Shown here: one piece after another, positions 5,633 to 54,840 of the stretch
Position numbering within the stretch: position 1 is the stretch's first letter
Layout: every line of letters starts with the position of its first letter
Assembly: GCA_965197965.1 (NCBI GenBank)
Contig: OZ240235.1
Span: forward strand, 90,621 to 154,620
From: Dehalococcoidia bacterium
Lineage (GTDB): Bacteria > Chloroflexota > Dehalococcoidia > Lucifugimonadales > QGNO01
Direction of reading: 5' to 3'
DNA length: 64,000 nucleotides
Position numbers and translations under genes: made by a program
The notes under the pieces: generated by a model
Told to the model about the DNA's origin: nothing
The model's database searches: none
What the model saw: only the letters and a program-made list of their open reading frames with translations

Positions 5633-5736
5633 CTAGGAGACGCCCTGCCGCGACAGGTAATCGTGGAGGCGTTCCAGGGTTTTGCGGTTCTCTTAGAGAG
5701 AGAATCCGTCCACGGCGTAGGCGCGTTCTACCTTGA
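5633..5736 (-). pseudogene. dead duplicate of the last ~34 codons of the DUF4392 gene (6576..7427)
   Basis: Reads VKVERAYAVDGFSL*ENRKTLERLHDYLSRQGVS*. The live end reads FKVERTYAVDGFPLEENRKTLERLHDYLTQQGIS*. The relic carries an in-frame stop and has no upstream ORF. Confidence 0.8.
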
Positions 5737-5796
5737 CACTGATGCAGCTTTAACCTAGTCTGATGGCTAGTCAGCACAATGAATAAAGAGGTTAGC

Positions 5797-6057
5797 ATGA
5801 GCAAGAGATGGCCGGTCCAGGATGCCAAATCGAGGTTTAGCGAGCTTCTAGACACCACCCTCACGGAAGGGCCACAGATTGTAACCAAGCGAGGTGTGGA
5901 AGCCGCCGTCCTCCTTCCCATTGAGCAGTGGCGGAGGCTGGAGCGGATGACGAGACCGGATCTGAAAGAGTTGCTGCTTGCCCCTGAGGCGCGAACCGAG
6001 GCTCTTACGTCGCCGCGCCAGCAGCGCCGTCGTCGACCACCTGTAGTGGTGGAGTAG
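5797..6057 (+). CDS. vapB: type II antitoxin, Phd/YefM-like (partner of VapC)
   Basis: MSKRWPVQDAKSRFSELLD...GPQIVTKRGVEAAVLLPIEQW is the Phd/YefM pattern. ATG 5797 has an AAGAGG RBS; the track start 5779 is less likely. Confidence 0.8.
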   Translation: MSKRWPVQDAKSRFSELLDTTLTEGPQIVTKRGVEAAVLLPIEQWRRLERMTRPDLKELLLAPEARTEALTSPRQQRRRRPPVVVE

Positions 6058-6060
6058 CCC

Positions 6061-6468
6061 ATGTACCTCTTAGACACCAACGTGGTTTCGGAGCTGCGTC
6101 GCCTCCGTCCGCATGGCGCAGTTCTGGATTGGATTGCAGACGTGCCGGCGGAGCAGCTGTTTGTGTCTGCCGTTACGGTTGGCGAGATACAGGCGGGGAT
6201 CGAGATCACCCGTGAGCAGGATGAAGCCAAGGCTGAGGAGTTGGGAGCGTGGCTGGACAATGTCCTGGCTTCCTACGGCATACTTCCAATGGATGCGCTC
6301 TCCTTCAGAGAGTGGGCGCGGCTGATGCACAGGAGATCAGGCGCTATGACCGAAGACGCCATGATAGCGGCGACAGCCATGGTTCATAGGTTGACGGTGG
6401 TCACTAGAAACGTGGCCGACTTTAGCGACCTTGGTGTTGACTATGTGAATCCGTTTGAAAGTGGATAG
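6061..6468 (+). CDS. vapC: PIN-domain toxin VapC
   Basis: MYLLDTNVVSELRR start and TRNVADF near the C-terminus. Lies 3 nt after the antitoxin stop. Confidence 0.85.
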   Translation: MYLLDTNVVSELRRLRPHGAVLDWIADVPAEQLFVSAVTVGEIQAGIEITREQDEAKAEELGAWLDNVLASYGILPMDALSFREWARLMHRRSGAMTEDAMIAATAMVHRLTVVTRNVADFSDLGVDYVNPFESG

Positions 6469-6504
6469 GCAGGGGGCTGGTTCAAGACCCCGCCGCCGCT
6501 CATG

Positions 6505-6563
6505 CCCTTCGACTATGCTCAGGATGAGCGGCCCCCTGGATGCCCGTTGCCACTGGCATGACG
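6505..6563. repeat. REP-like doublet (CCCTTCGACTATGCTCAGG unit plus GGATGC-hairpin-GCATGACG unit)
   Basis: GGATGCCCGTTGCCACTGGCATGACG at 6538-6563. Same architecture as the units elsewhere in the window. Confidence 0.7.
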
Positions 6564-6575
6564 AAAGAGGTGTGG

Positions 6576-7427
6576 CTAGGAGATGCCCTGCTGCGTCAAG
6601 TAATCGTGGAGGCGTTCCAGGGTTTTCCGATTCTCTTCCAGGGGAAATCCGTCCACGGCGTAGGTGCGTTCTACCTTGAACCCGTCCACTGCGCCCACGT
6701 CGACCATCTGCTTGACGACCTCTTCTTCTTCCTCCGGCGAGGGCAACAGGTTCTGTTTTGCCTGCAGGGAGAGGCCCGCTATGAGACCGGAAGCGCCCCA
6801 GTTGGAGACGCTGGCCAGGATCAGCTTGTCGGTGGGGACTATGGTGGGCTGCGGGGGCAGAGTATCGATGGTGGGGATTTGTTCGGCCAGCTTGCCCATG
6901 CCTATCTCGTTGCCGCCGTCTCCAATGCCCACGGTGGCGTTGTGGTCGAGCACAAGATAGTCCACCCTGGCGTTGTACTCCGTGATATCGACGCCACGCA
7001 TGTTCAGATATTCGCCCTTCTGAGTCAGGCCGCAGCGCTCGGTGGATATGACGACCGAGGGCTTCAAGTCGCCCAGGAGCTCCCGGGCAAACTTCCGGCT
7101 GGAGTCTTCGTCCGTAACGGGGAATTCGACCACTTCGCCCACGTCTGAAAGGCAGTTGTAAAGAGACGAACTGAACTCGTCGGTGACGTGTGTGACGTCG
7201 TAGCCCAACTGTTGCAGCGCTTTGCCGATGAAGTAAGCGCCGGGGGGGCCATCGGTCTCCGAGGCCATGGCTCCTACTATGAAGAAGCCGCTGATGACGA
7301 AGGCGCGTCCCGGGTTGCGGAGGACCAGATGCGCCGCGTCTTCGCAGTAGTCTTCCGGTAGGTATCCACGCAGCTTGGATATGCCTCTCTGGTCGCGGTC
7401 AAGGATGATGTCTTCTATAGCGGACAC
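6576..7427 (-). CDS. DUF4392 protein (N-terminal-domain homolog of D-glutamate cyclase)
   Basis: ETDGPPGA, VISTERCG and GIGDGGNEIGMG motifs, which I associate with DUF4392. Adjacent to a DUF1445 gene. Confidence 0.6.
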   Translation of the reverse strand: MSAIEDIILDRDQRGISKLRGYLPEDYCEDAAHLVLRNPGRAFVISGFFIVGAMASETDGPPGAYFIGKALQQLGYDVTHVTDEFSSSLYNCLSDVGEVVEFPVTDEDSSRKFARELLGDLKPSVVISTERCGLTQKGEYLNMRGVDITEYNARVDYLVLDHNATVGIGDGGNEIGMGKLAEQIPTIDTLPPQPTIVPTDKLILASVSNWGASGLIAGLSLQAKQNLLPSPEEEEEVVKQMVDVGAVDGFKVERTYAVDGFPLEENRKTLERLHDYLTQQGIS

Positions 7428-7463
7428 GGTTGCCTCCCAATTTGCGGTTCGGTACTTATCTAA

Positions 7464-8270
7464 TCAGAGAACGGCCAGGTCTTCGTCGCGGACGTCCGTG
7501 ATGAACATGTGCCCCGGCGAGTGGGTAATCATGAATGGCGGCTTGGACTGCATAGCCACGGCCTGAGGGGTGACGCCGCATGCCCAGAAAACGGGCACCT
7601 CCCCCGGATGGAAGGGGACAACGTCGCCGTAGTCCGGCTTCTGTAGGTCATCGATGCCTATAGATGCCGGGTCGCCGACGTGGAGAGGCGCGCCGTGGGT
7701 GTTGGGAAAGCGGGACGTGACCTGCACGGCCTTCACTATCTTTTCACGGCCAATGGGGCGCATGGACACCACCGTGGGACCGGCGAACTGGCCCGCGGGC
7801 ACTGTCGGCATGTTGGTGATGTACATGGACACGTTGCTGTTCTCTTCTATGTGCCGCATGGGGATTCCCGCCGCCAGCAGCGCCGTTTCGAAGGTGAAGC
7901 TGCAGCCGATGAGGAAAGAGACGAGGTCGTCTCGCCAGACGTCCAGAACATCCGCCGTTTCCTGTTCCAGCACGCCGTCCCTGTAGACGCGGTACTTTGG
8001 CAGGTCGGTGCGGATGTCTGCGCCGGGTGCGGTAATTGATGGCTCCACGCTGCCGGACTCCACGACTTCTATGAGAGGACAGGGCTTGGGGTTGCGCTGG
8101 CAGAATAGCAGGAAGTCGAAAGCCTGGGCCTCGGGCAGGATGACAAGGTTGGCCTGGACGTAGCCGGGCGCGAGTCCCGCCGTTACGGTGTCGTATTCGC
8201 CGTTGCGGATGATGCTGCGCAATGCAGCGGGAGAAGAAGGAAGTGTACTGATTGCCATGAGTACCCCCAT
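7464..8270 (-). CDS. putative hydro-lyase, DUF1445/UPF0317 (D-glutamate cyclase family)
   Basis: [15 protein letters not shown]...[14 protein letters not shown]...PMRHIEE...MFITD pattern of UPF0317. The start may instead be the internal ATG at 8258 (MAIST). Confidence 0.7.
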
Positions 8271-8445: not shown

Positions 8446-8850
8446 ATGAGCGACACGGACGGTTTGATAGAGAAGATCCTGGCGCAGAAGACGATTGCCG
8501 TGGTAGGCCTTTCACCCAGGCCGGATAGGCCGAGCTACCAAGTTGCCGAATACCTGAAGGATGCGGGTTACCGGATTGTTCCCGTCAATCCATCGGTGGA
8601 AGAGGTGCTGGGGGAGAAGAGCTATCCCGACCTCAGATCGGTCCCGGGGACCATCGATGTGGTGGACGTTTTCCGCCGGCCCAGCGACGTGATGCCGGTG
8701 GTAGAGGAGGCCATAGAGGTCGGAGCGGGGTACGTCTGGATGCAGGAAGGGATTGCCAATGAAGCCGCGGCGGAGAAGGCCAAGGCGGCGGGGATTCCGG
8801 TGGTCATGGACCTCTGCATAAAGAAGGAGCACGAGTCGCGGTTAGGGTAG
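8446..8850 (+). CDS. CoA-binding domain protein (YccU/YneT-like)
   Basis: KTIAVVGLSPRPDRPSY...GYRIVPVNP...VDVFR pattern. ATG 8446 preferred over GTG 8407. TACAAT box sits 6 nt upstream of the ATG, so the mRNA may be leaderless. Confidence 0.7.
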   Translation: MSDTDGLIEKILAQKTIAVVGLSPRPDRPSYQVAEYLKDAGYRIVPVNPSVEEVLGEKSYPDLRSVPGTIDVVDVFRRPSDVMPVVEEAIEVGAGYVWMQEGIANEAAAEKAKAAGIPVVMDLCIKKEHESRLG

Positions 8851-8860
8851 GGGCCGCGCC

Positions 8861-9063
8861 CCTGGATTCCCGTGCCAAGTGCGAGGATGATGGGCACCGC
8901 CCACGCCGTCATTCAGAGGCGTTAACGCCGAAGAATCCAAAGCCTCTGTCCGCAAAGCTACGACGTTTTTGGTGAACGGTCTTGGATCCTTCGTTGCACT
9001 CAGGATGACAATAACCGCGGTCTGTTCCTTGACTCCCGCTCACTCCCTTCGACGTGCTCAGGG
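8861..9063. repeat. REP-like cluster, four units including one in inverted orientation
   Basis: Units at 8861-8892, 8908-8938 (inverted: reverse complement GGATTCTTCGGCGTTAACGCCTCTGAATGAC), 8983-9010, and CCCTTCGACGTGCTCAGGG at 9045-9063. The last overlaps the vapC stop codon. Confidence 0.7.
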
Positions 9064-10559: not shown

Positions 10560-10575
10560 TTTCCGCTGCGCCGCC

Positions 10576-10682
10576 CCTGGGTTCCTGCCTGCGCAGGAAC
10601 GACGAATGGGGGGTGTGCGCTTGACTATGTACGCTTGTCTCTCTGCGACACAGATTCTTCGCTGCGCTCAGAATGACGGTTT
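10576..10682. repeat. REP-like pair (GGGTTCC hairpin unit plus 60-bp long unit)
   Basis: GGGTTCCTGCCTGCGCAGGAACGACG at 10579-10604 (8-bp perfect stem). Long unit at 10623-10682 ends in AGATTCTTCGCTGCGCTCAGAATGACG. Confidence 0.75.
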
Positions 10683-12287: not shown

Positions 12288-12391
12288 TCCCTTCGACTAT
12301 GCTCAGGGTAAACTTCAGGCTCAGGGCGAGCGTGCAGGCGGGGCAGAGGCTTTGGATTCTTCACTCCGCGGAGCTTCGTTCAGAATGACGG
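12288..12391. repeat. REP-like pair
   Basis: CCCTTCGACTATGCTCAGGG unit, then TTGGATTCTTCACTCCGCGGAGCTTCGTTCAGAATGACGG at 12352-12391. Confidence 0.7.
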
Positions 12392-25529: not shown

Positions 25530-25700
25530 GCTTCTCGTACAGGATGATATAGTTGGGATGTCCTGAGCAATCAAGGCAACGGAGGGGACGGGGTGGAGGC
25601 CAATCGGGCAACCGAGCGGTCGAAAGCCTGGCCAAGCCGGAACTGAGATTTCTCAGGACATTTTCTTTTCACCGCTTGATTTAGACCCCTCACTACGCCG

Positions 25701-25984
25701 CAGGATTGCTTTGCGGAGTTCGCAATGACGGGAAGGACACGCGGGCATGACGAGGAGGGCGTGCTGAAATACGGGGCGGGGGTTTGCGGGCGGGCGGCCT
25801 GGGATTCTTCACTCCGCTGTGCTCCGTTCAGAATGACACTGTCGCGCCGCCGGATTGCTTTGCTGCGCTCGCAATGACGGAAGGGGGCGCCCTCACCCGC
25901 CGCTTTGCGCCGACCTCTCCCAGAGGGAGAGGTGTAGAGCCGTCCCCCGGCCGCCGGATTGCTTCGCTGCGCTCGCAATGACGA
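25701..25984. repeat. densest REP-like cluster (four GGATT-type units plus a CCTCTCCC/GGGAGAGG hairpin)
   Basis: Units at 25701-25732, 25799-25839, 25852-25879 (GGATTGCTTTGCTGCGCTCGCAATGACG) and 25953-25984. Irregular spacing. Confidence 0.75.
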
Positions 25985-25995
25985 GAAGGGCGGGG

Positions 25996-29868: not shown

Positions 29869-29957
29869 TAGGCCCTCCTGAATGCGAGCACATGGTATGC
29901 AGGTATGAGGGAGCGGTCAAGCTGGGCAAGCGGGCAGGGGGACAGCCGCGCCGCCAC

Positions 29958-30122
29958 TAGATTGCTTCGCTGGGTTCACAATGACGCTGCGCCCCGCCGC
30001 CCTGGGTTCCTGCCTCCGCAGGAACGACGAATGGGGCCCCAGGGCAACCACGAGGGTTGCCCCTACAATGTTTCTGCTCCCGCGCTTGGGTTCCCGCCTT
30101 CGCGGGAGCGACGAATGAGGGG
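29958..30122. repeat. REP-like cluster (three units plus accessory hairpins)
   Basis: TAGATTGCTTCGCTGGGTTCACAATGACGC at 29958-29987. CCTGGGTTCCTGCCTCCGCAGGAACGACGAATGGGG at 30001-30036. CTTGGGTTCCCGCCTTCGCGGGAGCGACGAATGAGGGG at 30085-30122. Confidence 0.75.
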
Positions 30123-31653: not shown

Positions 31654-32808
31654 CTAGGCCAGCGCCTCAATTCTGCGGCAGGCTTCTTCCAAGTCCTCAT
31701 CCGTCTTTGCGTAGCAGAAGCGCATGAGGTTGTCTCCGTCCGAGCCGTGGTAGAAGGCGCTTCCCGCCACCCCTGCCACGCCGGTCTCCCGGAGCAGGTG
31801 CATGGCCTTGTCTCTACCCGTATCCCCCGGAAGCCGGGATACATCCGCCAAAACGTAGTAAGAGCCCTGGGGCGGGTAGGGGGCCAAGCCTGCTTTGGAC
31901 AGAGCGTTGCATATCTTGTCCCGTTTGACCTTGAAGTCAGTGACAATGTTGGAGTAGTACTCGGGCGAAAGCTCTTCCAGGCCTCTTGCCACGCCAAGTT
32001 GAAGCGGCGCTGGAGCGCACACGTAGACCAGGTCGTTCATATACCCGATGATCTGCGCCCACTTTGCATCGCTCACCGCGTATCCAATCCTCCAGCCCGT
32101 GATGCTGAAGACCTTGGAAGCTCCGGATATGGTAATAGTGCGTTCCGCCATGCCCGGCAGTGTAGCCGGACTTATGTGCGTTCTGCCATCGTAGACGAAA
32201 TGTTCGTAAATCTCGTCGGTTATGAGGAACAGGTCATTCTCTTGGACAACCTTGGCTATCCATTCCAGCTCGGTGCGGCTGTACACCTTGCCGGAGGGGT
32301 TGGAAGGGGTGTTGACAATGATGGCTTTGGTCCTGGGCGTGATGGCAGCTTTCAGGCGCTCCGGATCGAACGACCAGTCGGAAGGTGCGGTCGGGACATA
32401 GACGGGGACGGCGTCCATCGAGAGTAGGGTGTTCACGTGGTACTGGTAGTACGGTTCGAAGAGTATTACCTCGTCACCGGGGTCGAGCAGCGCCATGCAA
32501 GCGCTGTAGAATACTCCGGTAGAGCCAGTGCTCACTATGATCTGGCTTTCCGGGTCTACGTCCATGCCGTTGTAGTTGCGCATCTTATTGGCGATGGCGT
32601 ATCTGAGCCGGGGAAGCCCGTCATAGCGAGTGTATATGTTGAACCCATCTTCCACAGCCTGTTGCGCGCCCTGTCTCACGGGCAGGGGGACTTCCATATC
32701 GCAGACGCCTTGAGCAAGGTTGATTCCACCGACCCTGTTGCACTCGATGCTCATAGACCTGATCTCTGATTGGAATACCAATCTTGTTCTGGCGCTCAGT
32801 GAAGGCAT
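31654..32808 (-). CDS. class I/II PLP-dependent aminotransferase
   Basis: INLAQGVCD and SGASKVFSITGWRIGY (PLP lysine) motifs. ATG 32808 has an AAGGAG RBS; the track start 32883 is less likely. Confidence 0.85.
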   Translation of the reverse strand: MPSLSARTRLVFQSEIRSMSIECNRVGGINLAQGVCDMEVPLPVRQGAQQAVEDGFNIYTRYDGLPRLRYAIANKMRNYNGMDVDPESQIIVSTGSTGVFYSACMALLDPGDEVILFEPYYQYHVNTLLSMDAVPVYVPTAPSDWSFDPERLKAAITPRTKAIIVNTPSNPSGKVYSRTELEWIAKVVQENDLFLITDEIYEHFVYDGRTHISPATLPGMAERTITISGASKVFSITGWRIGYAVSDAKWAQIIGYMNDLVYVCAPAPLQLGVARGLEELSPEYYSNIVTDFKVKRDKICNALSKAGLAPYPPQGSYYVLADVSRLPGDTGRDKAMHLLRETGVAGVAGSAFYHGSDGDNLMRFCYAKTDEDLEEACRRIEALA

Positions 32809-32966
32809 ATAGCTCCTTGGACAAGTAACTTGCTGTATGATGTTACGCCTGTTATTGAAATGAAGCAAAGCATTAGGCTTCATCTTAACTGAACAGAGTG
32901 ATGCGGAGTGGCTTGACTGCTTAGAGAAACTAGGCCGTGCACCTTGATTAGGAGGGTTGACTCAAA

Positions 32967-34379
32967 ATGAAGATGTTCATAGGCGGCGAATGGGTAGACA
33001 AGCCTGAGAAGGCGGAAGTAATTAATCCATTCGACAATTCAGTGATAGATTCCGTGCCAAAAGCAGACCTGGAGGACGTGGAGACGGCTATATCCAGCGC
33101 GGTGCGAGGCTCCAAGGTCATGGCAAGAACACCGAGCTATCAGCGCTTTCTCTGGCTGCGAAGAGCTGCAGACCTCCTGGAAGAACGGTCGGAGGAGATG
33201 GCGCGGACCATTTCCATGGAGGAGGGCAAGATCCTGGCCGAGGGCCGGACGGAAGTTGCCCGTGCCGTGCAAACGATCAGCCTCTCCGGAGAAGAAGCGA
33301 AACGCATATACGGCGAGACTATACCTTTGGATGCCAACCCCAGCTGGACGGGCCAGATAGGATTCACCTTGCGCGTCCCGGTTGGCGTGGTGGTGGCCAT
33401 CAGCCCGTTCAATTTCCCTTTGAACCTGGTCGCGCACAAGGTGGCTCCGGCGCTGGCCGCGGGCAACTCCGTAATCATCAAGCCGGCCAGCGATACTCCT
33501 TTATCGGCCTTGAAACTGGTGGAGATTCTGCTCGATGCGGGCGTGCCGGCGGAAGCGGTGCAGTGCTTGACCGGCTCAGGCGGCACCTTGGGAGACGCCC
33601 TGGTAGCCGACCAACGAGTGCGCAAGATATCTTTTACGGGGAGCCGGGACATAGGCGATCACATAGCACGAGTGGCCGGTCTGAAGAAAATTACCATGGA
33701 GCTGGGTTCCATCTGCCCGTTGATTGTGATGCCCGACGCCGATATGACGAAGGTGGTGGCGGCCACAATATCAAGCGGATATGCCAATGCGGGACAGGCA
33801 TGCACTTCAGCACAACGCATAATCACCAGCAGGTCTCTCTACGCGAACTATTTGGACGCCCTGAAGGAAGCGGTAGAGGCCATGAAGGTGGGCGATCAAT
33901 TGGAGGAAGGCGTGGTGATGGGGCCGATGGTGCGCGAACAGGATGCGGCGCGGGTCAACCAGTGGGTCAGAGAGGCTCAAGCCGGAGGAGGCCGCGTCAT
34001 AGCCGGCGGCGACTATTCCAAGGCTGTGCACCAGCCCACGGTTGTGGCAGACGCCAGGCCTGAGATGCGAATCTCGTGTGACGAGCTGTTCGGCCCCGCG
34101 GTGGCGGTGACGCCGTTCACCGATATCGATGAAGCTATTGGCATGGCGAACGATACCAACTACGGGCTAAGCGCTGGGATATTCACCCAGAACGTAGATT
34201 GGGCGATGAAGTTCGCCAAAGAGGTTGAATTTGGGAACCTGATGATCAATCAAGGCCCCGGCTACCGTGCCGATCTGATGCCGTTTGGCGGACTGAAGGA
34301 GAGCGGCCTGGGCAAGGAAGGGCCCAAGTACGCCGTGGAAGAGATGACCGAGGTCAAAATGGTGGCCTATCACCCATAA
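32967..34379 (+). CDS. aldehyde dehydrogenase family protein
   Basis: FPLNLVAHKVAPALAAGN, ELGS (general-base Glu; ELGG in most members) and GQACTSAQR catalytic-Cys region. Confidence 0.9.
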   Translation: MKMFIGGEWVDKPEKAEVINPFDNSVIDSVPKADLEDVETAISSAVRGSKVMARTPSYQRFLWLRRAADLLEERSEEMARTISMEEGKILAEGRTEVARAVQTISLSGEEAKRIYGETIPLDANPSWTGQIGFTLRVPVGVVVAISPFNFPLNLVAHKVAPALAAGNSVIIKPASDTPLSALKLVEILLDAGVPAEAVQCLTGSGGTLGDALVADQRVRKISFTGSRDIGDHIARVAGLKKITMELGSICPLIVMPDADMTKVVAATISSGYANAGQACTSAQRIITSRSLYANYLDALKEAVEAMKVGDQLEEGVVMGPMVREQDAARVNQWVREAQAGGGRVIAGGDYSKAVHQPTVVADARPEMRISCDELFGPAVAVTPFTDIDEAIGMANDTNYGLSAGIFTQNVDWAMKFAKEVEFGNLMINQGPGYRADLMPFGGLKESGLGKEGPKYAVEEMTEVKMVAYHP

Positions 34380-34406
34380 ATAGCGGGTAGCAAACACAGA
34401 CTGGCA

Positions 34407-34503
34407 GCACGCGCTTGGATTCCCGTGTCAAGCACGAGAATGACGAAAGGGAAGGGAGGCGCTAGACGGCTGGCTTGTCAGTATGTCTCCAGCTATCTTG
34501 CGG
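34407..34503. repeat. direct-repeat copy 1: REP unit plus dead 3' end of the hydantoinase gene
   Basis: 97 bp, matching 35228-35325 (98 bp) at roughly 85-90% by hand alignment. The minus strand reads RKIAGDILTSQPSS; the live end reads RKIAGDILTRPAV*. Confidence 0.85.
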
Positions 34504-34520
34504 TAGAGTCGTTGGGATTG

Positions 34521-35231
34521 TCAGGACGGCAGCGCCTGCCGCGCCCTCTTGAAAATGTTGTCCAGCATAGGCTGAGTGAGTCTACCCGTCTGGGTGTTCT
34601 GGCGGCTGGGATGATAAGAGGCAATGAAGGTTAAGTTTGGAGCTAGCTTATATTCGAGTCCGTGACCGAATTTAGGCTTAGGGGAGGGGAGGGGGCGTTT
34701 AAGTGCCTTCCAGGCCTTGAGAAAGCTATCGAAGGCGATTTTGCCCAACGCTATGACCACTTCGACGTTCCTCAGAAGCTCTAGCTCGGCCAAAAGGTAA
34801 GGCTGACATCGCCTCAACTCCTCCGATTGGGGCTTATTGTCTGGCGGAGCACACCTCAAAGCCGCCGTGATGTACATATTCTTCACCACCAAGCCATCGC
34901 CTCTGTGGGTCGATAATGGTTGGTTGGTGAAATCATATTTGTACAGGGAGCGAAACAGCCATTCACCGCTACTATCTCCAGTGAACATACGTCCCGTCCG
35001 ATTGGAGCCATGGGCGCCAGGAGCCAGACCAAGAATCAATATCTTGGCCGATTCATCACCGAAGCCCGGAACAGGCCGGCCCCAGTAATCGCAGTGGCTG
35101 TACATGCGACGCTTCTTCCGGGCGATGGCCTGTCGGTGCTCCACCAATCGGGGACACTGAGCACATGAGATTATTCGTTGGTTCAGTTGCTGAAGGGTGA
35201 CCATTACAGGGTGTAGCTCCGTTGGCGGCAT
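34521..35231 (-). CDS. uracil-DNA glycosylase, family 5 (UdgB)-like
   Basis: GLAPGAHGSNRTGRMFTGDSSG motif and CAQCPRL Fe-S cysteines. Start uncertain: ATG 35231, ATG 35204, or the track's TTG 35252, which lies inside the REP unit. Confidence 0.8.
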   Translation of the reverse strand: MPPTELHPVMVTLQQLNQRIISCAQCPRLVEHRQAIARKKRRMYSHCDYWGRPVPGFGDESAKILILGLAPGAHGSNRTGRMFTGDSSGEWLFRSLYKYDFTNQPLSTHRGDGLVVKNMYITAALRCAPPDNKPQSEELRRCQPYLLAELELLRNVEVVIALGKIAFDSFLKAWKALKRPLPSPKPKFGHGLEYKLAPNLTFIASYHPSRQNTQTGRLTQPMLDNIFKRARQALPS

Positions 35232-35325
35232 GCGCCTGGATTCCCGTGTCAAGCACGAGAATGACGGAAGGGGAGGGGAGCGCTAGACAGCGGGTCTTGT
35301 GAGTATGTCTCCAGCTATCTTGCGG
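35228..35325. repeat. direct-repeat copy 2: REP unit plus live 3' end of the hydantoinase gene
   Basis: GGATTCCCGTGTCAAGCACGAGAATGACG at 35238-35266 is identical to 34417-34445. Confidence 0.85.
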
Positions 35326-36713
35326 GGGATGAGCTTGCCCTCACCGAGCGTTCCCACCAGTTTGCGGTCCTCTATCATTACCTTGCCGCGCAGGGTCACG
35401 GTTACGGGCCAGCCTTCTATCTGCCAGCCCTCCCATGGGTTGTAATCGTAAAGGTGTAGGTCCTCCATTGAGAGCGTCTTCTTGATGTTGGGGTCTATTA
35501 TCGTAATGTCGGCGTCGCTGCCCGTGGCTATGGCGCCCTTTTGGGGGTAGAAGCCAAGTATTTTGGCGGGATTGGTCGACATGATATCGACGTAACGCTC
35601 CAAAGACATTCCTTGCTTCACCACGCCGTCCGAGTATGCTACCCCCATCCGGATTTCTATGCCTATGTTGCCGCCCTGGACGTCCACCACCGTTCTGCCC
35701 CTTGTCTTTCCGGCGTAATCCGTAGCTATGGCGTCAGTGGCCAGGATGCTCAGGTCTCCCACGATTAGGCCGTCCCAGAGCCGCAGCCTGTCCTCCTCCG
35801 ACTTTGTGGCAGGGTAGGTGTGGTATTTCATACCATCGGATTCTTTGTAGTTTTCGGAGTTGAAAGAGGCGTAGAGGAGGATGGTTTCGCCGTATACGGG
35901 GTATCCGCGCCTCCTCGATTCGGCTATGGCGTTCACGCCCTCCTTGGCGCTGGTGTGCACTATGTACATGGCGGAGCCGGTATGCTCGGCGGCGCGTATC
36001 ACCCGGCGTACCGACAGATCCTCCGACAGGTTGGTGCGGATCGTGGGAAGGTAATACCAGTCCCAGGTCTCGTTCTCAGCGGCCCTGGCGTAGTTGTACT
36101 GCACTATTTCGTCGTCTTCCGCATGAATGGCTACGATGCCGCCGTGCTCCGCGGTTTCCCGCATGATATCCACCAGCTGGCCCATGTCTATCATGGTGAC
36201 CGGCCGGTTTGGCCTTGGAGCGTGGTTAGTGGTGAATATCTTGACGCTGGGGAAACCAGCAGCTACGAGGTCCTTTATCTGCGAGATGGTCTGCGGATTG
36301 GCGTTCGGGCCCCGGTAGGTGCAATGAGCCGAGTAGTCTACGTACATCTTGTCTTGGAACATGGCCATGTGGTCTTGGACGGCTCTCACCATGTCTCCGT
36401 GCTTGGCATCGGTAACGCTGGCGAAGTCCATCATGGTGGTTGTGCCGCCCCAGAGCGCGCCCAGGGACAGGTCTTCCGGGCCGGCGGTGTTATTGCCCCA
36501 GCCGGGGGCCAAGTGGGGGAATCCCACGTGGGTATGCGCTTCTACGCCGCCGGGCACAACGATCTTGCCAGTGGCATCGATGGCTTTTTTTGTTTCGGGT
36601 AGGGCATCCGGCGTGGCTACGGCCACAATCTTCTCGCCAATGACGCCTATGTCCCACTGGCCGATGCCGGCCGGAGTCACAACATGTCCGCCTCTTATTG
36701 TTAGGTCAAGCAT
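35283..36713 (-). CDS. D-hydantoinase / dihydropyrimidinase family amidohydrolase
   Basis: GGVEAHTHVGFP metal-binding HxH region, about 476 aa, cyclic amidohydrolase architecture. AGGAGG RBS. Confidence 0.85.
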   Translation of the reverse strand: MLDLTIRGGHVVTPAGIGQWDIGVIGEKIVAVATPDALPETKKAIDATGKIVVPGGVEAHTHVGFPHLAPGWGNNTAGPEDLSLGALWGGTTTMMDFASVTDAKHGDMVRAVQDHMAMFQDKMYVDYSAHCTYRGPNANPQTISQIKDLVAAGFPSVKIFTTNHAPRPNRPVTMIDMGQLVDIMRETAEHGGIVAIHAEDDEIVQYNYARAAENETWDWYYLPTIRTNLSEDLSVRRVIRAAEHTGSAMYIVHTSAKEGVNAIAESRRRGYPVYGETILLYASFNSENYKESDGMKYHTYPATKSEEDRLRLWDGLIVGDLSILATDAIATDYAGKTRGRTVVDVQGGNIGIEIRMGVAYSDGVVKQGMSLERYVDIMSTNPAKILGFYPQKGAIATGSDADITIIDPNIKKTLSMEDLHLYDYNPWEGWQIEGWPVTVTLRGKVMIEDRKLVGTLGEGKLIPRKIAGDILTRPAV

Positions 36714-36718
36714 AGCTA

Positions 36719-36767
36719 CCTCCTGGCCCGTCTTGGCGCGGGCGGCCTTCAGCGAGGTGAGTAGAGG
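36719..36767 (-). pseudogene. relic duplicate of the 3' end of the DUF2277 gene
   Basis: Minus strand reads PLLTSLKAARAKTGQE; the live end reads LLTSLKTIHTKTG*. About 35/49 nt match 36838-36886. Conserved flanks are CCTCCT.GCC.GTCTTGG and TTCAGCGA. Confidence 0.5.
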
Positions 36768-36776
36768 TGCGCTTTG

Positions 36777-36836
36777 GTTATATGTCCGCTTGTCTGCCTG
36801 CGACGCAGATTCTTCGCTGCGCTCAGAATGACGGTT
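36777..36836 (+). repeat. 60-bp long REP unit (one of three near-identical copies)
   Basis: GGTTATATGTCCGCTTGTCTGCCTGCGACGCAGATTCTTCGCTGCGCTCAGAATGACGGT. Other copies at 10623-10682 and 44559-44618, same orientation. Confidence 0.85.
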
Positions 36837-36841
36837 TCCTC

Positions 36842-37057
36842 CTAGCCTGTCTTGGTATGTATGGTCTTCAGCGAAGTAAGCAGGGCCTGGGACGCCAGAC
36901 TTATCTCATCGATCGCTTGATTGAAAGCGGTCTCATTGGCTCGCGAGGGCTTGGCATAGCCGCTGATCTTGCGCACGAATTGCAGCGCGGCGGCGCGCAC
37001 GTCTTCGTCATTGACCGTGGCGTCCGGGCTGCGCAGCTTCTTGATACTTCGGCACAT
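36842..37057 (-). CDS. DUF2277 domain protein
   Basis: MCRSIKKLRSPDATVNDEDVRAAALQFVRKISG matches the DUF2277 N-terminal pattern. Confidence 0.7.
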   Translation of the reverse strand: MCRSIKKLRSPDATVNDEDVRAAALQFVRKISGYAKPSRANETAFNQAIDEISLASQALLTSLKTIHTKTG

Positions 37058-37114
37058 GGAAGCTCCTAAATTAGCGTTTTGGTTAGCTATTTGTATCTTG
37101 CGTATCTGTGCAAC

Positions 37115-38467
37115 ATGCCTATACTACAGCAAGTGGCAATAGAGCAGAACTCCACAGAACCCGCCACCCAGGTTAGGCCGGGTCGAGTCTTCTACGGTTG
37201 GTACATTGTTGCGGCTGGCACCATCACCAGCTTTGTCAACATGGCCGTATTCATGGTTGGCCTTTCTATTTTCATCAAAGACATCCGCGATGAGATGGGC
37301 TGGTCCCTTACCGCCATCTCCTTAGGCTTCTCTCTAAAGCAGCTCGAAACAGGTATCTTGGCTCCCGTTTCCGGCTACTTGATAGACCGTGTTGGCCCTA
37401 GAATCATGGCGGCCTCCGGGAACGTGGTGATGACGATAGGGCTGCTCCTCTTCGCCAACATGGACTCTGTATGGGAGTTCTATATTGCCTCGTTGGTAAT
37501 AGCGCTGGGCCAGGGTATGGGCGCCCACATGGCGTACATAACGCCTGTAATGCACTGGTTCCACCGCAAGCGTGGATTAGCTTCCTCTTACATTGCCATG
37601 GGTCGTGGGTGGGGCTACGTAGGCTCGTTGCCTATCACCATCCTACTGGTGATCTTTGGATGGCGTGAAGCGGCCACCATTGCCGCCATAGCGTTCCTGG
37701 TCATAAATTTCCCCATGGCGCTGCTGCTCAGGGCGCGGCCGGAACCGTATGGCTGGCTGCCGGACGGGGCGACCGTGCCGCCCCAGGTCTCGAGCGGTCC
37801 CGGATCAAAGGGGCAAGGCCAAGAAGGTGGGAGCTACTCGGTGAAAGACGCCATGAAAATGGCATCTTTCTGGCTTGTGCTGCTGGCCAACGCCGTCTAC
37901 AGCTTCGGCACCTCCACCAACCACGTACATTTTATTTACCATCTGCGCAACACGGGATTTACGGCTCTTTCCGCGGGAGTGATTGTTTCCATCTACGGCG
38001 CGGTGCAGGTATTTGGCCGCCTGGCCAGCGGCTCGATTGGTGATAAGGTAGGGAGACATAGGCTGCTCATGTACAGCTTTGTTTTGATGGGTATAGGCTG
38101 GGTTGCCATTTCTATGATCACCCCAAGCACCCTCTGGGCCGTTGGGTTGTACTACCTGGCTTACGGCTTGGGGCAAGCGGCTCATACCGTGACGCAACAG
38201 ACCATAGTGGCCGACTTCTTTGGGCCGAGGAGATATGCTACGTTGCGCGGAATAATGAACCCGATCAGTGTGGGCGGCGGCGTTCTGGGCCCATTGTTTG
38301 CCGGGAGGATGTTTGATGCCCAGGGTTCCTATCAGTTGGCCTTCTTCATCATGGGTCCGCTGGTAGCCCTGGGTGCACTCGCCATTTTCCTGGCAGGCAA
38401 ACCCGGGCTGGTAGAGGATCCCTTGGAAGCAAGGAAAGCTGCCAGCACTGTGAGTGCAAAGGAGTAG
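37115..38467 (+). CDS. MFS transporter
   Basis: About 12 TM segments; GYLIDRVGPR loop motif. First ATG at 37115 preferred over TTG 37079. Confidence 0.8.
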   Translation: MPILQQVAIEQNSTEPATQVRPGRVFYGWYIVAAGTITSFVNMAVFMVGLSIFIKDIRDEMGWSLTAISLGFSLKQLETGILAPVSGYLIDRVGPRIMAASGNVVMTIGLLLFANMDSVWEFYIASLVIALGQGMGAHMAYITPVMHWFHRKRGLASSYIAMGRGWGYVGSLPITILLVIFGWREAATIAAIAFLVINFPMALLLRARPEPYGWLPDGATVPPQVSSGPGSKGQGQEGGSYSVKDAMKMASFWLVLLANAVYSFGTSTNHVHFIYHLRNTGFTALSAGVIVSIYGAVQVFGRLASGSIGDKVGRHRLLMYSFVLMGIGWVAISMITPSTLWAVGLYYLAYGLGQAAHTVTQQTIVADFFGPRRYATLRGIMNPISVGGGVLGPLFAGRMFDAQGSYQLAFFIMGPLVALGALAIFLAGKPGLVEDPLEARKAASTVSAKE

Positions 38468-38472
38468 GTTAC

Positions 38473-40071
38473 ATGCCTAGAATGACCGGTGGACAAGCGC
38501 TGGCGAAATCGCTGCACCGCGAGGGTGTGCGGGTCATATTCGGCCTACCGGGCGTGCAGCTTTACCACGCTCTGGATCCGCTTTACGACGAGCCCAGCAT
38601 TCGTTGGATAACGACCAGGCATGAGCAGGCTACCGCCTACATGGCCGACGGTTTTTCCCGCGCAGGGGGCGGAATAGGGACGGCTATGGTAGTCCCGGGC
38701 CCGGGCCTGCTCAACGCCACCGCCGGCATTGGTACGGCTTATGCCGCATCGTCGCCGATACTGGTTGTGTCCGGTCAGGTACAGAGAGAGTTGATCGGAG
38801 TCAACAGAGGGGTCCTTCACGAGGTGCACGAACAGCTCGATACCATAAGGCCGATCACCAAGTGGGCGCATAGGGTCTTGGACCCCGCGGAGATTCCTCA
38901 AGCCGTGCACGAGGCCTTCTACCAGCTTAAGACCGGCCGTCCCAGGCCTGTCGAGATCGAGATACCGCCGGAAACGCTTGCCGAAGAAGCAGACGTAGAG
39001 CTCCGCGAACCTGGCGACTACCGGCGCGGCGCGGCCAGCGATGAAAGCGTGCAGAACGCGGCGCGGTTGCTGGTTGAAGCCGGGAGGCCGCTGATATGGG
39101 CGGGTGGAGGAGCTATATCTTCGGGCGCGTCGGAGATACTGGTCAGGCTGGCGGAGCATCTGCAGGCTCCGGTCGTGACTACCGGCGAGGGCAAAGGCGC
39201 CATATCGGACAGGCATTACCTGTCTCTTGGAGTACCCAGAGCGCCGGGTGATCCGCTGGCAACGGAGATGCAGAAACATGACCTGGTACTGGCCGTGGGC
39301 ACAAGGCTGGCCGTTCCCAGTCTGTTGAATGGACCGGTTGTGCAAGTGGATATAGACGCCGAGGAGATAGGCCGCAACTATGAGAACACCGTAGGTGTGG
39401 TAGGGGATGCCGGACTCACCCTGGAAGCGCTGTACAGGGCGGTTTCCACGGCAGCCCCGCCGCGGCCCAGCCGGCAGTCGGAGATGGAAGAGGTCAAGGC
39501 AAGAATAGCTGCGGAGTCGCGCAGGATTGAGCCTCAGGACTCGTTCAACTCCGCAATTCGCGCCGCAATACCGGACGACGGCATACTTGTGGCAGGGATG
39601 ACCCAGTTGGGTTACTACTCGCGGCCGTACTATCCTGTCTATGAGCCGGGCACGTATCTCAATTCGTCGTATTTTGGCAATCTGGGGTTTGCTTACCCCG
39701 TGGCGCTTGGGGCAAAAGTGGCCCAGCCGGACAAGGTGGTGGTGGCCGTCTCCGGAGACGGCGGTTTTCTGTATAACTCGCAGGAGTTGTCCACCGCGGT
39801 CAAATACGGTATCAACGTGGTAACGGTTGTCTTCAACGACAACGCTTACGGCAATGTCTTGCGTGATCAGATGAACCGTTTCGATGGTCGTACCGTTGGC
39901 GCGGAGCTGCACAACCCTGACTTCGTCAAGCTGGCTGAGGCCTATGGCGCGCGCGGCGTCAGGGTAGGGGGCGCCGATGAACTGGAAAGGGCACTGGTCG
40001 ATTCGTTTACTGCGCAAGCGCCCACACTGATCGAAGTGCCGGTGGGGATGATGCCGTCCCCATTTAGCTGA
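38473..40071 (+). CDS. thiamine-diphosphate-dependent enzyme (acetolactate synthase large-subunit-like)
   Basis: VIFGLPGVQLYHALD, TRHEQATAYMADGF and GDGGFLYNSQELSTA...NDN ThDP motif. Confidence 0.85.
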   Translation: MPRMTGGQALAKSLHREGVRVIFGLPGVQLYHALDPLYDEPSIRWITTRHEQATAYMADGFSRAGGGIGTAMVVPGPGLLNATAGIGTAYAASSPILVVSGQVQRELIGVNRGVLHEVHEQLDTIRPITKWAHRVLDPAEIPQAVHEAFYQLKTGRPRPVEIEIPPETLAEEADVELREPGDYRRGAASDESVQNAARLLVEAGRPLIWAGGGAISSGASEILVRLAEHLQAPVVTTGEGKGAISDRHYLSLGVPRAPGDPLATEMQKHDLVLAVGTRLAVPSLLNGPVVQVDIDAEEIGRNYENTVGVVGDAGLTLEALYRAVSTAAPPRPSRQSEMEEVKARIAAESRRIEPQDSFNSAIRAAIPDDGILVAGMTQLGYYSRPYYPVYEPGTYLNSSYFGNLGFAYPVALGAKVAQPDKVVVAVSGDGGFLYNSQELSTAVKYGINVVTVVFNDNAYGNVLRDQMNRFDGRTVGAELHNPDFVKLAEAYGARGVRVGGADELERALVDSFTAQAPTLIEVPVGMMPSPFS

Positions 40072-44493: not shown

Positions 44494-44511
44494 CGGGAAC
44501 TCCTATGGGGT

Positions 44512-44680
44512 TTGGATTCCCGCCTGCGCGGGAGTGACGGGTGTGTGGGTGTGGCCTTGGCTATATGTCCGCTTGTCTCCCAGCAACGCAGATTCTTCGC
44601 TGTGCTCAGAATGACAGTGTGGCGCTTCCGGCAAATTGACACCGGGATTATGAAAAGGTCTCCCTGTGCGGGAGTGACGG
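44512..44680. repeat. REP-like cluster between the binding-protein and permease genes
   Basis: TTGGATTCCCGCCTGCGCGGGAGTGACGGG at 44512-44541. Long unit at 44559-44618. GGTCTCCCTGTGCGGGAGTGACGG at 44657-44680. Confidence 0.75.
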
Positions 44681-48585: not shown

Positions 48586-48699
48586 CCTGGATGTCAGTCC
48601 CCGCATCAAGTGTGGGGCAGGTTACACAGGCATGACTAAGGTGTTCTGTCAGCCCACGCTACCACCAGATTGCTCGCTGGCGCTTGCAATGACGATAGG
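48586..48699. repeat. REP-like pair
   Basis: CCTGGATGTCAGTCCCCGCATCAAGTGTGGGGCAG...GCATGACTAAGG at 48586-48641. CCAGATTGCTCGCTGGCGCTTGCAATGACGATAGG at 48665-48699. Confidence 0.65.
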
Positions 48700-48769
48700 A
48701 CGGTGCGCTGTTCGTGCGTCTGTCATCATCGCTCGCGTTCCATAACCCCCAAAAGTGTCGAAAACTACA

Positions 48770-52235: not shown

Positions 52236-53618
52236 CTAGAACCAGCCGCGATAGAAAGTCTCGTAGGGGACGGCCGGGGGCTTCGCCAGGTGCGGAACGG
52301 GCAACTGGACCATTCCTCCTTCTCTGGAGGGAAGATAGACCACGGCCGAACCCTGAAGGTGGATCTCATCCACCTGGTTGCGTCCTTCCACCTTGATGCC
52401 CACGGCGTGGTAGGTGCGTTCGCCTGGCACAGCGCCGGGGCCGTCTTCGCCCGTTTGGACGTCCTGGAATTTCTTGACCACCTCCGCGCTGTAGACGCCG
52501 AGGTCACCGTAGTACATGGGCCGTCGCACGGCAACCTGGAGTTTGCGGATGAAGCCGTGGTCTCCCATCCAGTTGCTGATCAATCCCTGGGGGATCTGGC
52601 CGCGCTGGACGCCGTTGTCGAAGGGTAGGGACTGGCCGCGGTAGGCGGCCATGAGGGCGTCGCCATGCTCGTCGGCGGCGCTCCAGGGCCAGCGGGACAC
52701 AGGGTGGGTGAAGGCCCAGCCTTCCTCTGCGCCGCTTCCTATCTTGCCATGCCGCACTATCCAGTGCCCTTCCTCAAAGTGATACCATCTGACGGGACCG
52801 CGCCGGATGCTGCCTCCCCCGGGCCCGCCGTAGTCCTGGTCCGTCCATGGGGGCAATACCCAGGCGGGCAGCTTGTCGCCTTCCTTTACGTCTTCCCAGT
52901 AGAGGACCTCTTTGCCCCTGCGGTTTGCGCCTTTGCTCATAAGGTCTAAGGCTTCTTCCACCTTTTCCTTGCTGTACTTGGACACGCTGCGGTCGTACAT
53001 CATCCTCTCGCCAAGACGCTCCACGGGCATGACTCTGCCCGCGCCCAGCTCTTCACGCGGGATCATAATCACTGTGCCGTAGTTCTTGCCCAGGAGGTCG
53101 CCGCGCCTGTCCCAGAAGTAGGCATCGGTGGTGAGGACGAACATCTGACCGCCCCTGGCTCCCGGCTTTTCGATCATCTCGTGGGCCTTGGCCATGCCTT
53201 TGAAGCCCGTGCCAACGCGGATCACGTCGAAGAACTCCAGCGCCGAGCCGGCGTGGAAGTTGAGGACGGGATAGCCGCCCCCGCCCTCGCGGCGTGCCCC
53301 GTGCCAGAGGCCGGCACGGGCAGTGAGTAGTACGGTGCCAGGGGCAATGATGCAGCCGTAGGGGCCGTTCTTGGCGTACTCTCTATCCGTATAGAGGGGG
53401 TTATCGTCACTGATCCTCTTGGCGTAGGCCTTGATATCGGTCTCGGTCAGAATCCCGAAGCTCTTGTAGGGCGGGCCGGACTCGTCGAAGGCCTGGGTGA
53501 GCCTGGGAGAGCCGATCCCTTCCGCGAGCAGCTCATGGCCAATCATGGCCCTGGACCTCTCCCGGAATTCGTTGACTAGACTTTCAAATGTCCGTTCTTC
53601 TTGCTGAGGTATGGTCAT
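52236..53618 (-). CDS. double hot-dog (MaoC-dehydratase-like) protein, 460 aa
   Basis: ISDDNPLYTDREYA (MaoC-like D-x-N-P motif with Tyr in place of His). C-terminal hot-dog region NWMGDHGFIRKLQV...GDLGVYSAEVV. Confidence 0.6.
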   Translation of the reverse strand: MTIPQQEERTFESLVNEFRERSRAMIGHELLAEGIGSPRLTQAFDESGPPYKSFGILTETDIKAYAKRISDDNPLYTDREYAKNGPYGCIIAPGTVLLTARAGLWHGARREGGGGYPVLNFHAGSALEFFDVIRVGTGFKGMAKAHEMIEKPGARGGQMFVLTTDAYFWDRRGDLLGKNYGTVIMIPREELGAGRVMPVERLGERMMYDRSVSKYSKEKVEEALDLMSKGANRRGKEVLYWEDVKEGDKLPAWVLPPWTDQDYGGPGGGSIRRGPVRWYHFEEGHWIVRHGKIGSGAEEGWAFTHPVSRWPWSAADEHGDALMAAYRGQSLPFDNGVQRGQIPQGLISNWMGDHGFIRKLQVAVRRPMYYGDLGVYSAEVVKKFQDVQTGEDGPGAVPGERTYHAVGIKVEGRNQVDEIHLQGSAVVYLPSREGGMVQLPVPHLAKPPAVPYETFYRGWF

Positions 53619-53661: not shown

Positions 53662-54840
53662 CTACCACCAGGGGTCTCCCACGGGAAGACCAACCAGGAA
53701 TCCTCTCTCCGGCAAATAGACAACGGCTGTACCGTCCACCAGCGTCTCGCCCAGCTGGTTGAGGCCTGAGACGCGTATGTCCAGGGCGTGGTACTCCTCT
53801 GATCCTACGGTCTCTTTGTATTTCTTGACCACTTCTCCGGAGAGCCGCATGGTGTCTTGATAGCAAAAGTGGTTGGGGAGGTCAACAGTCAGTTTGCGGA
53901 GGAAACCCAGGTCTCCCATCCAGTTGGTGAGGAGCTGGGCAGCGCAGGCGAACCTCATGAGGCCTCTAGAGACGGGCATTTTGAAGCCAAGCGCCTGGAC
54001 GGACAGGATGTCTCCGTAGGCCTGTTCCACGTCAAAGTAGGGCCACTGTGTGCTGGGGTTGACGGTGATCCTGCCGGGCCGCTCCACCGCCGTTTGATGG
54101 GCGACTATGCCCAGATCGATGGAGGCGGGCTTGTGCTCCAAGAGACGCCAAGCCGCCAGCTCGTTGTAGTAGAGGGGACCTTTGACCAAAGTGGGCACCT
54201 TGTCGCCCACGTTGATCTCGCTCCAGTAGAGGGGCACCTCGCCGCGGTGCGGCGGTACGGCGTCCAAGTCGTCTTCCAGGCGCCGGACCTCATCCTCCGT
54301 AAACCTATGGATATCCCTGTCCAAGATGAGCGGGTCACCTAGCTGGTAGGGCGCCAGGGTTGCCGTGCCGGTGGCCCTGGCAAACACGGCGCCGTTCAAG
54401 GTGCGATAGGTAGCAGTCGAGTCCACCTCAGCAGTGGGCCGGTTACCCCAATTGTCACCCTCCCGCACGGCGGCAACACTAATGTCGCTGACCAGGCGCT
54501 CCGCCATGCGGATGACATCGCTCCACTCGGCGGAGGCGCGGGTGCTGAACCGGCGCAGTCCGTAGGCCTTCTGTTCGTAAGCTGCGCCGGAGTCGGGTGT
54601 GCGGACCGATAGAATGAAGGCGGGTGGCGCTATCAAGGTGTTGTAAGCAGTGCCCACGCCGCCGGTGGTGTCGTTGTAGAGTGGGTTCTTGTCGCCAAGG
54701 GCGGCGCAGAACCTCTGGATGGAGGACCAGTCGGCTTGCCTGACGCCTTGAGGGACGTCGGGCGCTTCTTGCCCAACGAACTGCTTGCTGTCTTCGATGA
54801 ACCGTTGCAAATCTGCGGAATTGGTTTGCGTTTCTACCAT
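53662..54840 (-). CDS. double hot-dog (MaoC-dehydratase-like) protein, 392 aa, probable partner subunit
   Basis: LGDKNPLYND and TNWMGDLGFLRKLTV motifs parallel to the downstream gene. 43-nt gap, same strand. Confidence 0.6.
   Translation of the reverse strand: MVETQTNSADLQRFIEDSKQFVGQEAPDVPQGVRQADWSSIQRFCAALGDKNPLYNDTTGGVGTAYNTLIAPPAFILSVRTPDSGAAYEQKAYGLRRFSTRASAEWSDVIRMAERLVSDISVAAVREGDNWGNRPTAEVDSTATYRTLNGAVFARATGTATLAPYQLGDPLILDRDIHRFTEDEVRRLEDDLDAVPPHRGEVPLYWSEINVGDKVPTLVKGPLYYNELAAWRLLEHKPASIDLGIVAHQTAVERPGRITVNPSTQWPYFDVEQAYGDILSVQALGFKMPVSRGLMRFACAAQLLTNWMGDLGFLRKLTVDLPNHFCYQDTMRLSGEVVKKYKETVGSEEYHALDIRVSGLNQLGETLVDGTAVVYLPERGFLVGLPVGDPWW

Follow-up and report, generated by a model that had tools for sequence, protein, structure and literature searches.

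A uracil-DNA glycosylase gene between direct repeats in a Dehalococcoidia catabolic cluster: the probable scar of an illegitimate recombination event

How does a gene for a DNA-repair enzyme come to stand alone between two long direct repeats inside a catabolic cluster, and do such repeats mark the ends of a mobile cassette? The question is raised by a stretch of 64,000 nucleotides (nt) from a Dehalococcoidia bacterium of the Chloroflexota (contig OZ240235.1, positions 90,621 to 154,620), here called the window, in which a family-5 uracil-DNA glycosylase (UDG) gene lies between a hydantoinase/dihydropyrimidinase-like amidohydrolase gene (hyd) and an aldehyde dehydrogenase gene (ALDH). An earlier reading of the sequence, the original prediction, described this UDG gene as inserted and as behaving like a cassette. 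We compared the window with 18 further Dehalococcoidia alleles of the same syntenic hyd/ALDH gap, and the repeats are best seen as the scar of illegitimate recombination in a single old event and not as the ends of an active cassette.

The UDG gene (34521..35204, minus strand) and hyd (35283..36713, minus strand) are convergent with ALDH (32967..34379, plus strand), which bounds the insertion site. Direct repeats do flank the UDG gene, as had been proposed; they cover 34402-34503 (102 nt) and 35223-35325 (103 nt), each 5 nt longer than first described, with one indel between them, and in a blastn alignment of 104 columns they are 89.4% identical. On the minus strand, both copies start with CCGCAAGATAGC.. 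in the last 14 hydantoinase codons and continue with the stop codon, a C/T-rich stretch of 17 nt, a hairpin and a CCA tail, ending 14 nt past the CCA. The right copy is the live 3' end of hyd, in frame through its 14 codons and stop at 35283-35325 (..PRKIAGDILTRPAV and ..RKIAGDILTRPAV, each followed by the stop), while the left copy is a relic of the same content that is out of frame because one base is missing, and the original prediction had assigned the two roles in the same way. Since the C-terminal motif ..LIPRKIxxxVLxxPxx is kept in hydantoinase homologues down to 55% identity, the duplicated coding piece, which is the native 3' end of hyd, is hydantoinase sequence and belongs to no mobile repeat. 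Given their 11 differences, the two copies do not represent one sequence collapsed or duplicated in assembly, an outcome that would have told against the original prediction. Between them lie 719 nt (34504-35222) and not 724 bp as first given, but the UDG gene is indeed the only gene there: an 18-nt leader from the repeat end to the UDG start codon (35205..35222, minus strand) and a 17-nt trailer past the UDG stop (34504..34520, minus strand) make up the rest. On its other side the relic is contiguous with a spacer that leads to the ALDH stop (34380..34401) and with the ALDH end itself.

The relatives show this gap in several states. Two alleles (L006 and L013) are empty, with gaps of 78 and 101 nt that contain the hyd stop, one hairpin unit, a spacer reading ..GTCYGTGTYT GCTAYCC.. 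and the ALDH stop; they correspond to exactly one repeat copy plus the spacer, and the window spacer at 34380..34401 is homologous to theirs. UDG genes with a fused end are present in 11 alleles (L008, L010, L011, L012, L086, L087 and L134-L138), where the native stop is lost and the reading frame continues 1-3 codons into the antisense strand of ALDH, giving the ends ..ALSSHQG, ..ALSSLHG or ..ALSSL. Three alleles (L007, L089 and L090) keep the native UDG stop and the same 17-nt trailer as the window, followed by CGTAATATCTG and then the ALDH-proximal GCTATCCTCCC. One close relative, L009, carries other cargo, a DUF3800 gene for 251 aa that is read from the opposite strand (7428-8183), with neither the hairpin unit nor a flanking direct repeat. 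Both repeat copies are found in the window only, and the sole joint specific to this allele is the one at 34503/34504, between the trailer and CCGCAAGATAGC. The cargo of L009 marks the hyd/ALDH gap as a hot spot with alternative contents.

All 15 UDG alleles have the left junction ..TGCAACGTGAGCC.. in common, with the sequence CA[A/G]CG[T]GAGCYAYA.. upstream of the ATG, and because they share one left junction at one site, a single UDG insertion event is indicated. The spacer motif GTCYGTGTYT is found in the empty alleles and, beyond these, only after the window relic (GTCTGTGTTT GCTACC). Thus an unbroken empty site forms the right half of the window structure, and the usual order of hyd, hairpin unit and UDG forms the left. 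The claim that the UDG gene was inserted is borne out by the empty gaps of L006 and L013 and by the contiguity of the relic with the ancestral spacer.

The fused alleles are best read as derived from the form with the native stop. The UDG protein ends in ..AL(P/S)S in both the window and L089, and the genes of the outside, donor-type lineage stop at the same place (..LLS and ..LSS). Two 10-nt look-alikes, GCTGYCGTCC at the UDG end and GCTAYCCTCC in the ALDH-proximal spacer, are placed such that a deletion between them yields the fused junction exactly; from this and the loss of the native stop, the fused form would be derived, possibly more than once. The original prediction had held that UDG genes at this position without repeats in relatives would count against it. 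Formally, 14 alleles are of this kind, but they are best read as derived, 11 of them lacking the native stop. Frameshifted or truncated UDG calls (126 and 197 aa) in L007 (about 7817), L136 and L137 are either pseudogenes or long-read indel errors; the gene is intact in L089 and L090, which are near-identical to L007.

The hairpin within the repeats had been taken for a repetitive extragenic palindromic (REP) unit, identical in both copies, and this assignment can now be made more specific. Its 29-nt core GGATTCCCGTGTCAAGCACGAGAATGACG is the same at 29 of 29 positions in the two copies, occurs exactly twice in the 64 kb and never in 100 shuffles, and is predicted to fold into a 9-bp stem with a 5-nt loop. 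One unit lies just past the hydantoinase stop (35237..35266, minus strand) and the other within the relic (34416..34445, minus strand). The CGTC-tagged class of REPs is defined by a CGTC tag, a stem of 8-9 bp starting with AT, a loop of 4-5 nt and a CCA tail (Di Nocera et al. 2013, PMC3733652), and the window hairpin has all of these, as CGTC, ATTCTCGTG, CTTGA, CACGGGAAT and CCA. It also resembles the published units in its intergenic position directly after a stop codon and in the heterogeneity of stems within one genome. At least 15 related units of the type CGTC...hairpin...AATCC are present in the window as a loose family with varied stems, and a strict hairpin scan of the window gives 4 against 1.5 expected. 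Unlike the published class, which in 2013 was known from five phyla, Chloroflexi not among them, the window units from a direct-repeat search all have one orientation, on the plus strand. Such hairpins, of several sub-families and both clustered and single, occur at 25697-25990, 29953-30120, 10562-10680, 44510-44618, 12338-12389, 8847-8893, 36771-36835 and 48661-48701.

Among close relatives the orthologous REP is gained, lost and rearranged. The unit upstream of UDG is absent in three groups (L007/L089, L008 and L136/L137) with three different boundaries. L012 (about 7520-7560) has an inverted loop, TCAAG for CTTGA, and L013 (7435-7478) a REP with a 22-nt partial tandem duplication.

What the gap has received appears to be a working gene. 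The 227-aa UDG frame is intact, and its dN/dS of 0.10-0.24 shows purifying selection, by which the gene has presumably been kept functional. The family-5 assignment of the original prediction is upheld: the best solved relative is the Thermus thermophilus UDGB structure 2D3Y (E 1.2e-57 over residues 9-222), family-4 structures match at E 1e-8 to 1e-9 and the Pfam UDG superfamily at E 1.5e-29, and NCBIfam returns family-4 matches only, below threshold. Motif A (GLAPGAHGSNRTGR) is the same in 2D3Y, and motif B (SYHPSRQNTQTGRLT, with HPSRQN) aligns with SYHVSRQNTQTGRLT of that protein. A motif A of the form GLAPG/A without a catalytic polar residue, together with HPS in motif B, is what we take to define family 5 (UDGb). 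The cysteines in CAQCPRL, RCAPP and RRCQPY align with those of 2D3Y and would provide the four ligands of a predicted 4Fe-4S cluster.

Homologues of the protein begin with MVTLQQLN, so that its start codon is the ATG at 35204, which lies outside the repeat by 18 nt. A longer frame that opens with a TTG at 35252 within the hairpin is therefore a calling artefact, and the idea that the UDG 5' end runs into the REP falls with it. A JGI metagenome scan with UDG gave no match closer than 59% identity, and looking up the exact hydantoinase of the window returned no record. Scans for consensus promoters and terminators at the UDG locus and the donor-type locus described below gave nothing useful, so that the idea of a leaderless -10 element TGCTATACT at the latter locus is unsupported. 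Rfam finds only a tRNA in the window.

Where the gene came from is suggested by its closest relatives outside the clade, P0126 in L091 (84% aa and 88.5% nt identity) and P0124 in L088 (77% aa identity). Both stand at a different, conserved locus without repeats, where dnaK-grpE-merR and UDG-lysA-holB occupy opposite strands, which further supports the claim of an insertion. L091 and L089 have in common some 15 nt ahead of the ATG (GCTATACTCTCTGTA), a score reached by 0 of 500 shuffles; in the sister alleles about 15 nt of the leader are thus homologous to sequence upstream of the gene in the donor lineage. For the UDG trailer, a shuffle test gave no significant match to the sequence downstream of the donor gene. 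Synonymous divergence (dS) of UDG is 0.33 between the window and L091 and 0.26-0.49 within the clade, where the flanking genes show 0.2-0.45. Between L091 and L088 it is 0.83, with 0.73-0.79 for dnaK, merR and lysA. These values speak for a transfer: UDG descends vertically in the L091/L088 lineage, and the clade copy branches from the L091 side. None of the top 120 matches to L091 LysA (down to 61% identity) comes from clade chromosomes, from which it follows that the clade and the L091 lineage are not close relatives; the clade's own dnaK-lysA locus was not identified via LysA homologues. The G+C content at third codon positions is 0.63 for UDG, 0.67-0.73 for its neighbours and 0.54-0.64 for the donor-type loci. 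Taken together, UDG was quite probably acquired horizontally from an L091-like lineage, at about the age of the clade.

The history of the locus has to be read against strong recombination within the population, as the distances between pairs of alleles form a mosaic that changes with the gene. Identity of the window to L134-L138 is 99-100% over 36900-39000, and to some of these contigs it is 97-100% at about 32500-33700; between these flanks lies a divergent tract of about 3 kb (33750..36800) with 90-97% identity to any sampled allele, which holds hyd, UDG, both repeats and the 3' half of ALDH. This points to an imported recombination tract or a hypervariable segment. As the tract is set in flanks of 99-100% identity, the window allele may well have been imported as a block of about 3 kb from an unsampled lineage.

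A second locus in the same window has the same architecture. Direct repeats of 114 nt, 88% identical, at 5623-5736 and 6566-6679 enclose an insert (5737-6565) with a Phd/YefM antitoxin gene (5779-6057) and a PIN toxin gene (6061-6468). What the repeats duplicate is the 3' end (the final ~100 nt) of a gene for a D-glutamate-cyclase-like protein (6576-7427, minus strand), together with the stop codon and a portion of a CGTC REP. Here too the junction is convergent, with ybjQ as the other gene. All of five relatives (L140-L144) carry the Phd/PIN pair with both repeat copies, the relic in L143 having a complete REP. The gene ends that are duplicated at the two loci are unrelated, and the REP stems differ. 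A screen of 1.36 Mb of collected loci for gene-end duplications around small inserts returned paralogue or domain repeats only (L034 and L030), and nothing analogous outside the window.

How the window structure arose can be put forward as follows, and we infer both the order of events and the template switch in it. UDG would have been acquired once by the clade ancestor, the most likely donor being another Dehalococcoidia lineage with the gene between the dnaK operon and lysA, and illegitimate (non-homologous) recombination would have placed it in the convergent hyd/ALDH gap, 17 nt past a CGTC-type REP hairpin. The incoming leader, gene and trailer would then have rejoined 102 nt behind the departure point, leaving the hyd 3' end and the REP in two copies. 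The simplest route would be a replication-linked template switch: the REP hairpin would halt the fork or nascent strand, which would go on to copy the foreign DNA and then anneal again about 100 nt upstream; REP hairpins are named as structures that stall replication (PMC3733652). A deletion between the 10-nt look-alikes (GCTRTCSTCC) could afterwards have produced the common form with UDG fused onto the ALDH end, smaller deletions could have produced the L007/L089 form, and the upstream REP would have been removed three times. Empty sites would reflect either homologous recombination between the repeats or retention of the old allele. To this account, by which the insertion itself copied the 102 nt twice and the other alleles are its decay products, we give a probability of roughly 0.45.

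Several observations weigh against it. The relic copy is present in just 1 of the 15 UDG-bearing alleles, the window allele rests on one assembly, and the conspecifics with flanks of 99-100% identity have the fused form, which makes the window allele an imported variant. Several origins or several rounds of spread would be needed for the fused form, and the two copies are only about 11% diverged, a low value for an event of the clade's age if the segment is not under constraint. Microhomologies seen by eye at the junctions (TGCNA on the left, GCAA.AT..CTG on the right) are no better than in shuffles, the 15-nt leader excepted, and no documented bacterial precedent for a 102-nt target duplication was found.

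A serious alternative, which we hold to be possible, is that the insertion was a simple one of the L089 type, in which leader, UDG and trailer replaced about 8 nt of spacer, and that the relic came from a subsequent exchange between a UDG allele and an empty allele. One end of this exchange would have been homologous, within ALDH or hyd, and the other, with less than about 100 nt of homology, illegitimate at the junction of the trailer and CGCAAGATAGC, with either empty-site DNA entering or an empty-site cell taking up a UDG fragment; it would be equivalent if a circularised fragment integrated in the Campbell manner via the 102-nt homology of hyd 3' end and REP. Such homology-facilitated illegitimate recombination is a documented process that has been shown experimentally (PMC3240628), and the mosaic distances and the divergent 3-kb tract demonstrate that alleles are swapped by homologous recombination here. 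The relic hyd end (CTGACAAGCC-AGCCGTC) is nearer to the L010 and L007 types than to the live copy of the window, L089 reads CGTAATATCTG in the place of CGCAAGATAGCTG of the window, which might have served the joint as microhomology, and a relic of about 100 nt might be expected if longer overlaps recombine legitimately. The switch of ancestry at the relic that this exchange predicts was not seen, however, L086 and L087 being the nearest alleles on both sides. The donor fragment would also have to end within the last ~45 nt of hyd, and the same chance would be needed independently at the Phd/PIN locus. Since that locus has the same architecture with both copies in all five relatives, we slightly prefer a duplication made by the insertion itself, although the evidence decides for neither.

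The remaining explanations fare less well. The cassette of the original prediction would consist of UDG and one repeat, non-autonomous and moved in trans by a recombinase that is specific for a site or a structure and recognises the REP hairpin or the hyd 3' end, in the manner of attL/attR, integron or RAYT systems. Integrase insertion typically leaves direct repeats by which the target gene regains its 3' end; the empty sites with one repeat copy, the different cargo (DUF3800) in the same gap of L009, the second case beside another CGTC REP and the perfect identity of the REP cores fit as well. We nevertheless find an active cassette unlikely. All 15 UDG alleles point to one insertion at one site, no recombinase is found in the insert or within about 8 kb, and the insert ends lack inverted repeats; the L009 insert has no flanking repeat and its REP is removed, the two cases duplicate unrelated gene ends next to different REP stems, and published CGTC REPs have no associated transposase (PMC3733652). 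Most alleles moreover keep UDG despite the loss of one or both repeats, and the pattern of its presence and absence is accounted for by deletions and homologous exchange of whole alleles. It would be quite improbable, too, that UDG was already fused to ALDH and that a copy of the hyd 3' end and REP was inserted downstream of it, for instance by a REP-associated duplication. The fused form is the commonest (11/15) and occurs in all sub-groups, and REPs do duplicate locally, as in the 22-nt tandem of L013 and the REP arrays at 25697-25990, but the inserted piece would have to recreate by chance a stop at the native position of the donor lineage, and both the GTCYGTGTYT spacer motif shared only with the empty alleles and the 17-nt trailer common to L007 and L089 would go unexplained. 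A chimeric assembly of reads from UDG-bearing and empty-site strains, finally, is very improbable: the allele does come from one assembly only and its central 3 kb are unlike the conspecific contigs, but the joint is between non-homologous sequences where mis-assembly joins fall in homology, there is no fault in orientation or colinearity, 11 positions distinguish the copies, and an analogous two-repeat structure stands at the Phd/PIN locus in 6 independent assemblies.

Measured against known systems, the structure is no integron cassette, integrase-borne island or transposon, as the defining features of each were looked for and are not there. An integron cassette would end in an attC site and have an intI integrase with attI nearby. 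Here part of each repeat is coding sequence from the gene next door, and no recombinase was found among the window neighbours or in the syntenic 17-kb L001 locus, the rest of the window not having been scanned protein by protein. Islands bounded by attL and attR are alike in that one direct repeat completes the target gene and the empty site has one copy, but here there is no integrase, the insert is a single gene of 0.7 kb at a single site in all 19 alleles, the repeats are mostly lost without loss of the gene, and close UDG relatives elsewhere have housekeeping genes around them and no repeats. A transposon or insertion sequence would have a transposase and terminal inverted repeats, neither of which was found with the insert, and the target duplications known for transposable elements range from a few bp to about 15 bp, far below 102 nt. 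Minimal mobile elements of Neisseria are gaps between conserved genes with alternative contents per strain that are exchanged via flanking homologous recombination. The hyd/ALDH gap, which is empty or holds UDG or DUF3800, resembles them, also in its repeats of the dRS3/CGTC type nearby, but the concept covers the spread of alleles and not the origin of a 102-nt repeat.

The structure is best seen as working by recombinase-free acquisition through illegitimate recombination, followed by exchange of alleles via flanking homology. Acquisition by double illegitimate, short-patch double illegitimate or homology-facilitated illegitimate recombination (PMC3240628; bioRxiv 10.1101/2023.11.22.568220) likewise brings in foreign DNA without a dedicated recombinase, one or two non-homologous joints being sufficient, in populations that also exchange DNA homologously. 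The known events differ in that they mostly delete or replace recipient DNA in short patches, whereas here about 720 nt came in and 102 nt of the recipient were duplicated, at joints whose microhomology did not beat shuffles. Template switching at stalled forks, or break-induced replication mediated by microhomology (FoSTeS/MMBIR), described for complex insertions in humans that show small gains in copy number where they inserted (PMC5120786), would account for a distant segment copied in with a short target duplication on its flanks and a hairpin-forming repeat at the departure point. It is known from eukaryotic genomes, however, and the window has neither templated micro-insertions nor demonstrable microhomology, so that the parallel is one of inferred mechanism.

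The UDG gene and its neighbours belong to a catabolic cluster with genes for an Ala-racemase-like protein, a GYD protein, an aminotransferase, ALDH, UDG, hydantoinase, DUF2277, an MFS transporter, a TPP enzyme and ureidoglycolate lyase. More distant Dehalococcoidia (L017-L021, L023, L024, L029 and L032) have a 70%-identical hydantoinase homologue with a family-5 UDG, 57-60% identical, about 3.3 kb downstream, in the order minD-minE-hyd-aminotransferase V-isocitrate-DH-like-CMD-UDG-Zn ribbon. L002-L005 and L014 (8001-14142 in L002) have a 74%-identical hydantoinase relative in a tandem array of four amidohydrolase paralogues alongside an ABC peptide transporter, and transposases of the IS110 and rve (HTH_21/rve) families lie close to some of these copies, as does a serine recombinase. 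Elsewhere in the window, about 1.1 kb at positions 1-1136 are repeated at 52451-53592, 52.4 kb away, with 70-80% identity, probably as paralogous genes, and a weaker third copy lies near 53891-54252.

The locus reveals no new mobile system. It is a clean natural example of a single housekeeping-type gene entering a new genome without mobile-element machinery, in which the states of the site, namely empty, a fresh-looking scar, decayed scars and alternative cargo, are preserved across related uncultured bacteria. It also extends the CGTC-tagged REPs to the Chloroflexota, where the 2013 survey apparently did not record them, and ties them to an unstable, recombination-prone gap. With two independent cases of the same architecture, UDG and Phd/PIN, in one 64-kb window, it is conceivable, if doubtful, that foreign genes enter these Dehalococcoidia preferentially at CGTC-type REP hairpins just downstream of genes, where replication stalling or a hairpin-specific enzyme would insert the cargo directly behind the REP and re-copy about 100-150 nt, made up of the gene 3' end and the REP. 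If REP-linked insertion should be general, it would be a testable route of recombinase-free gene gain in streamlined environmental bacteria.

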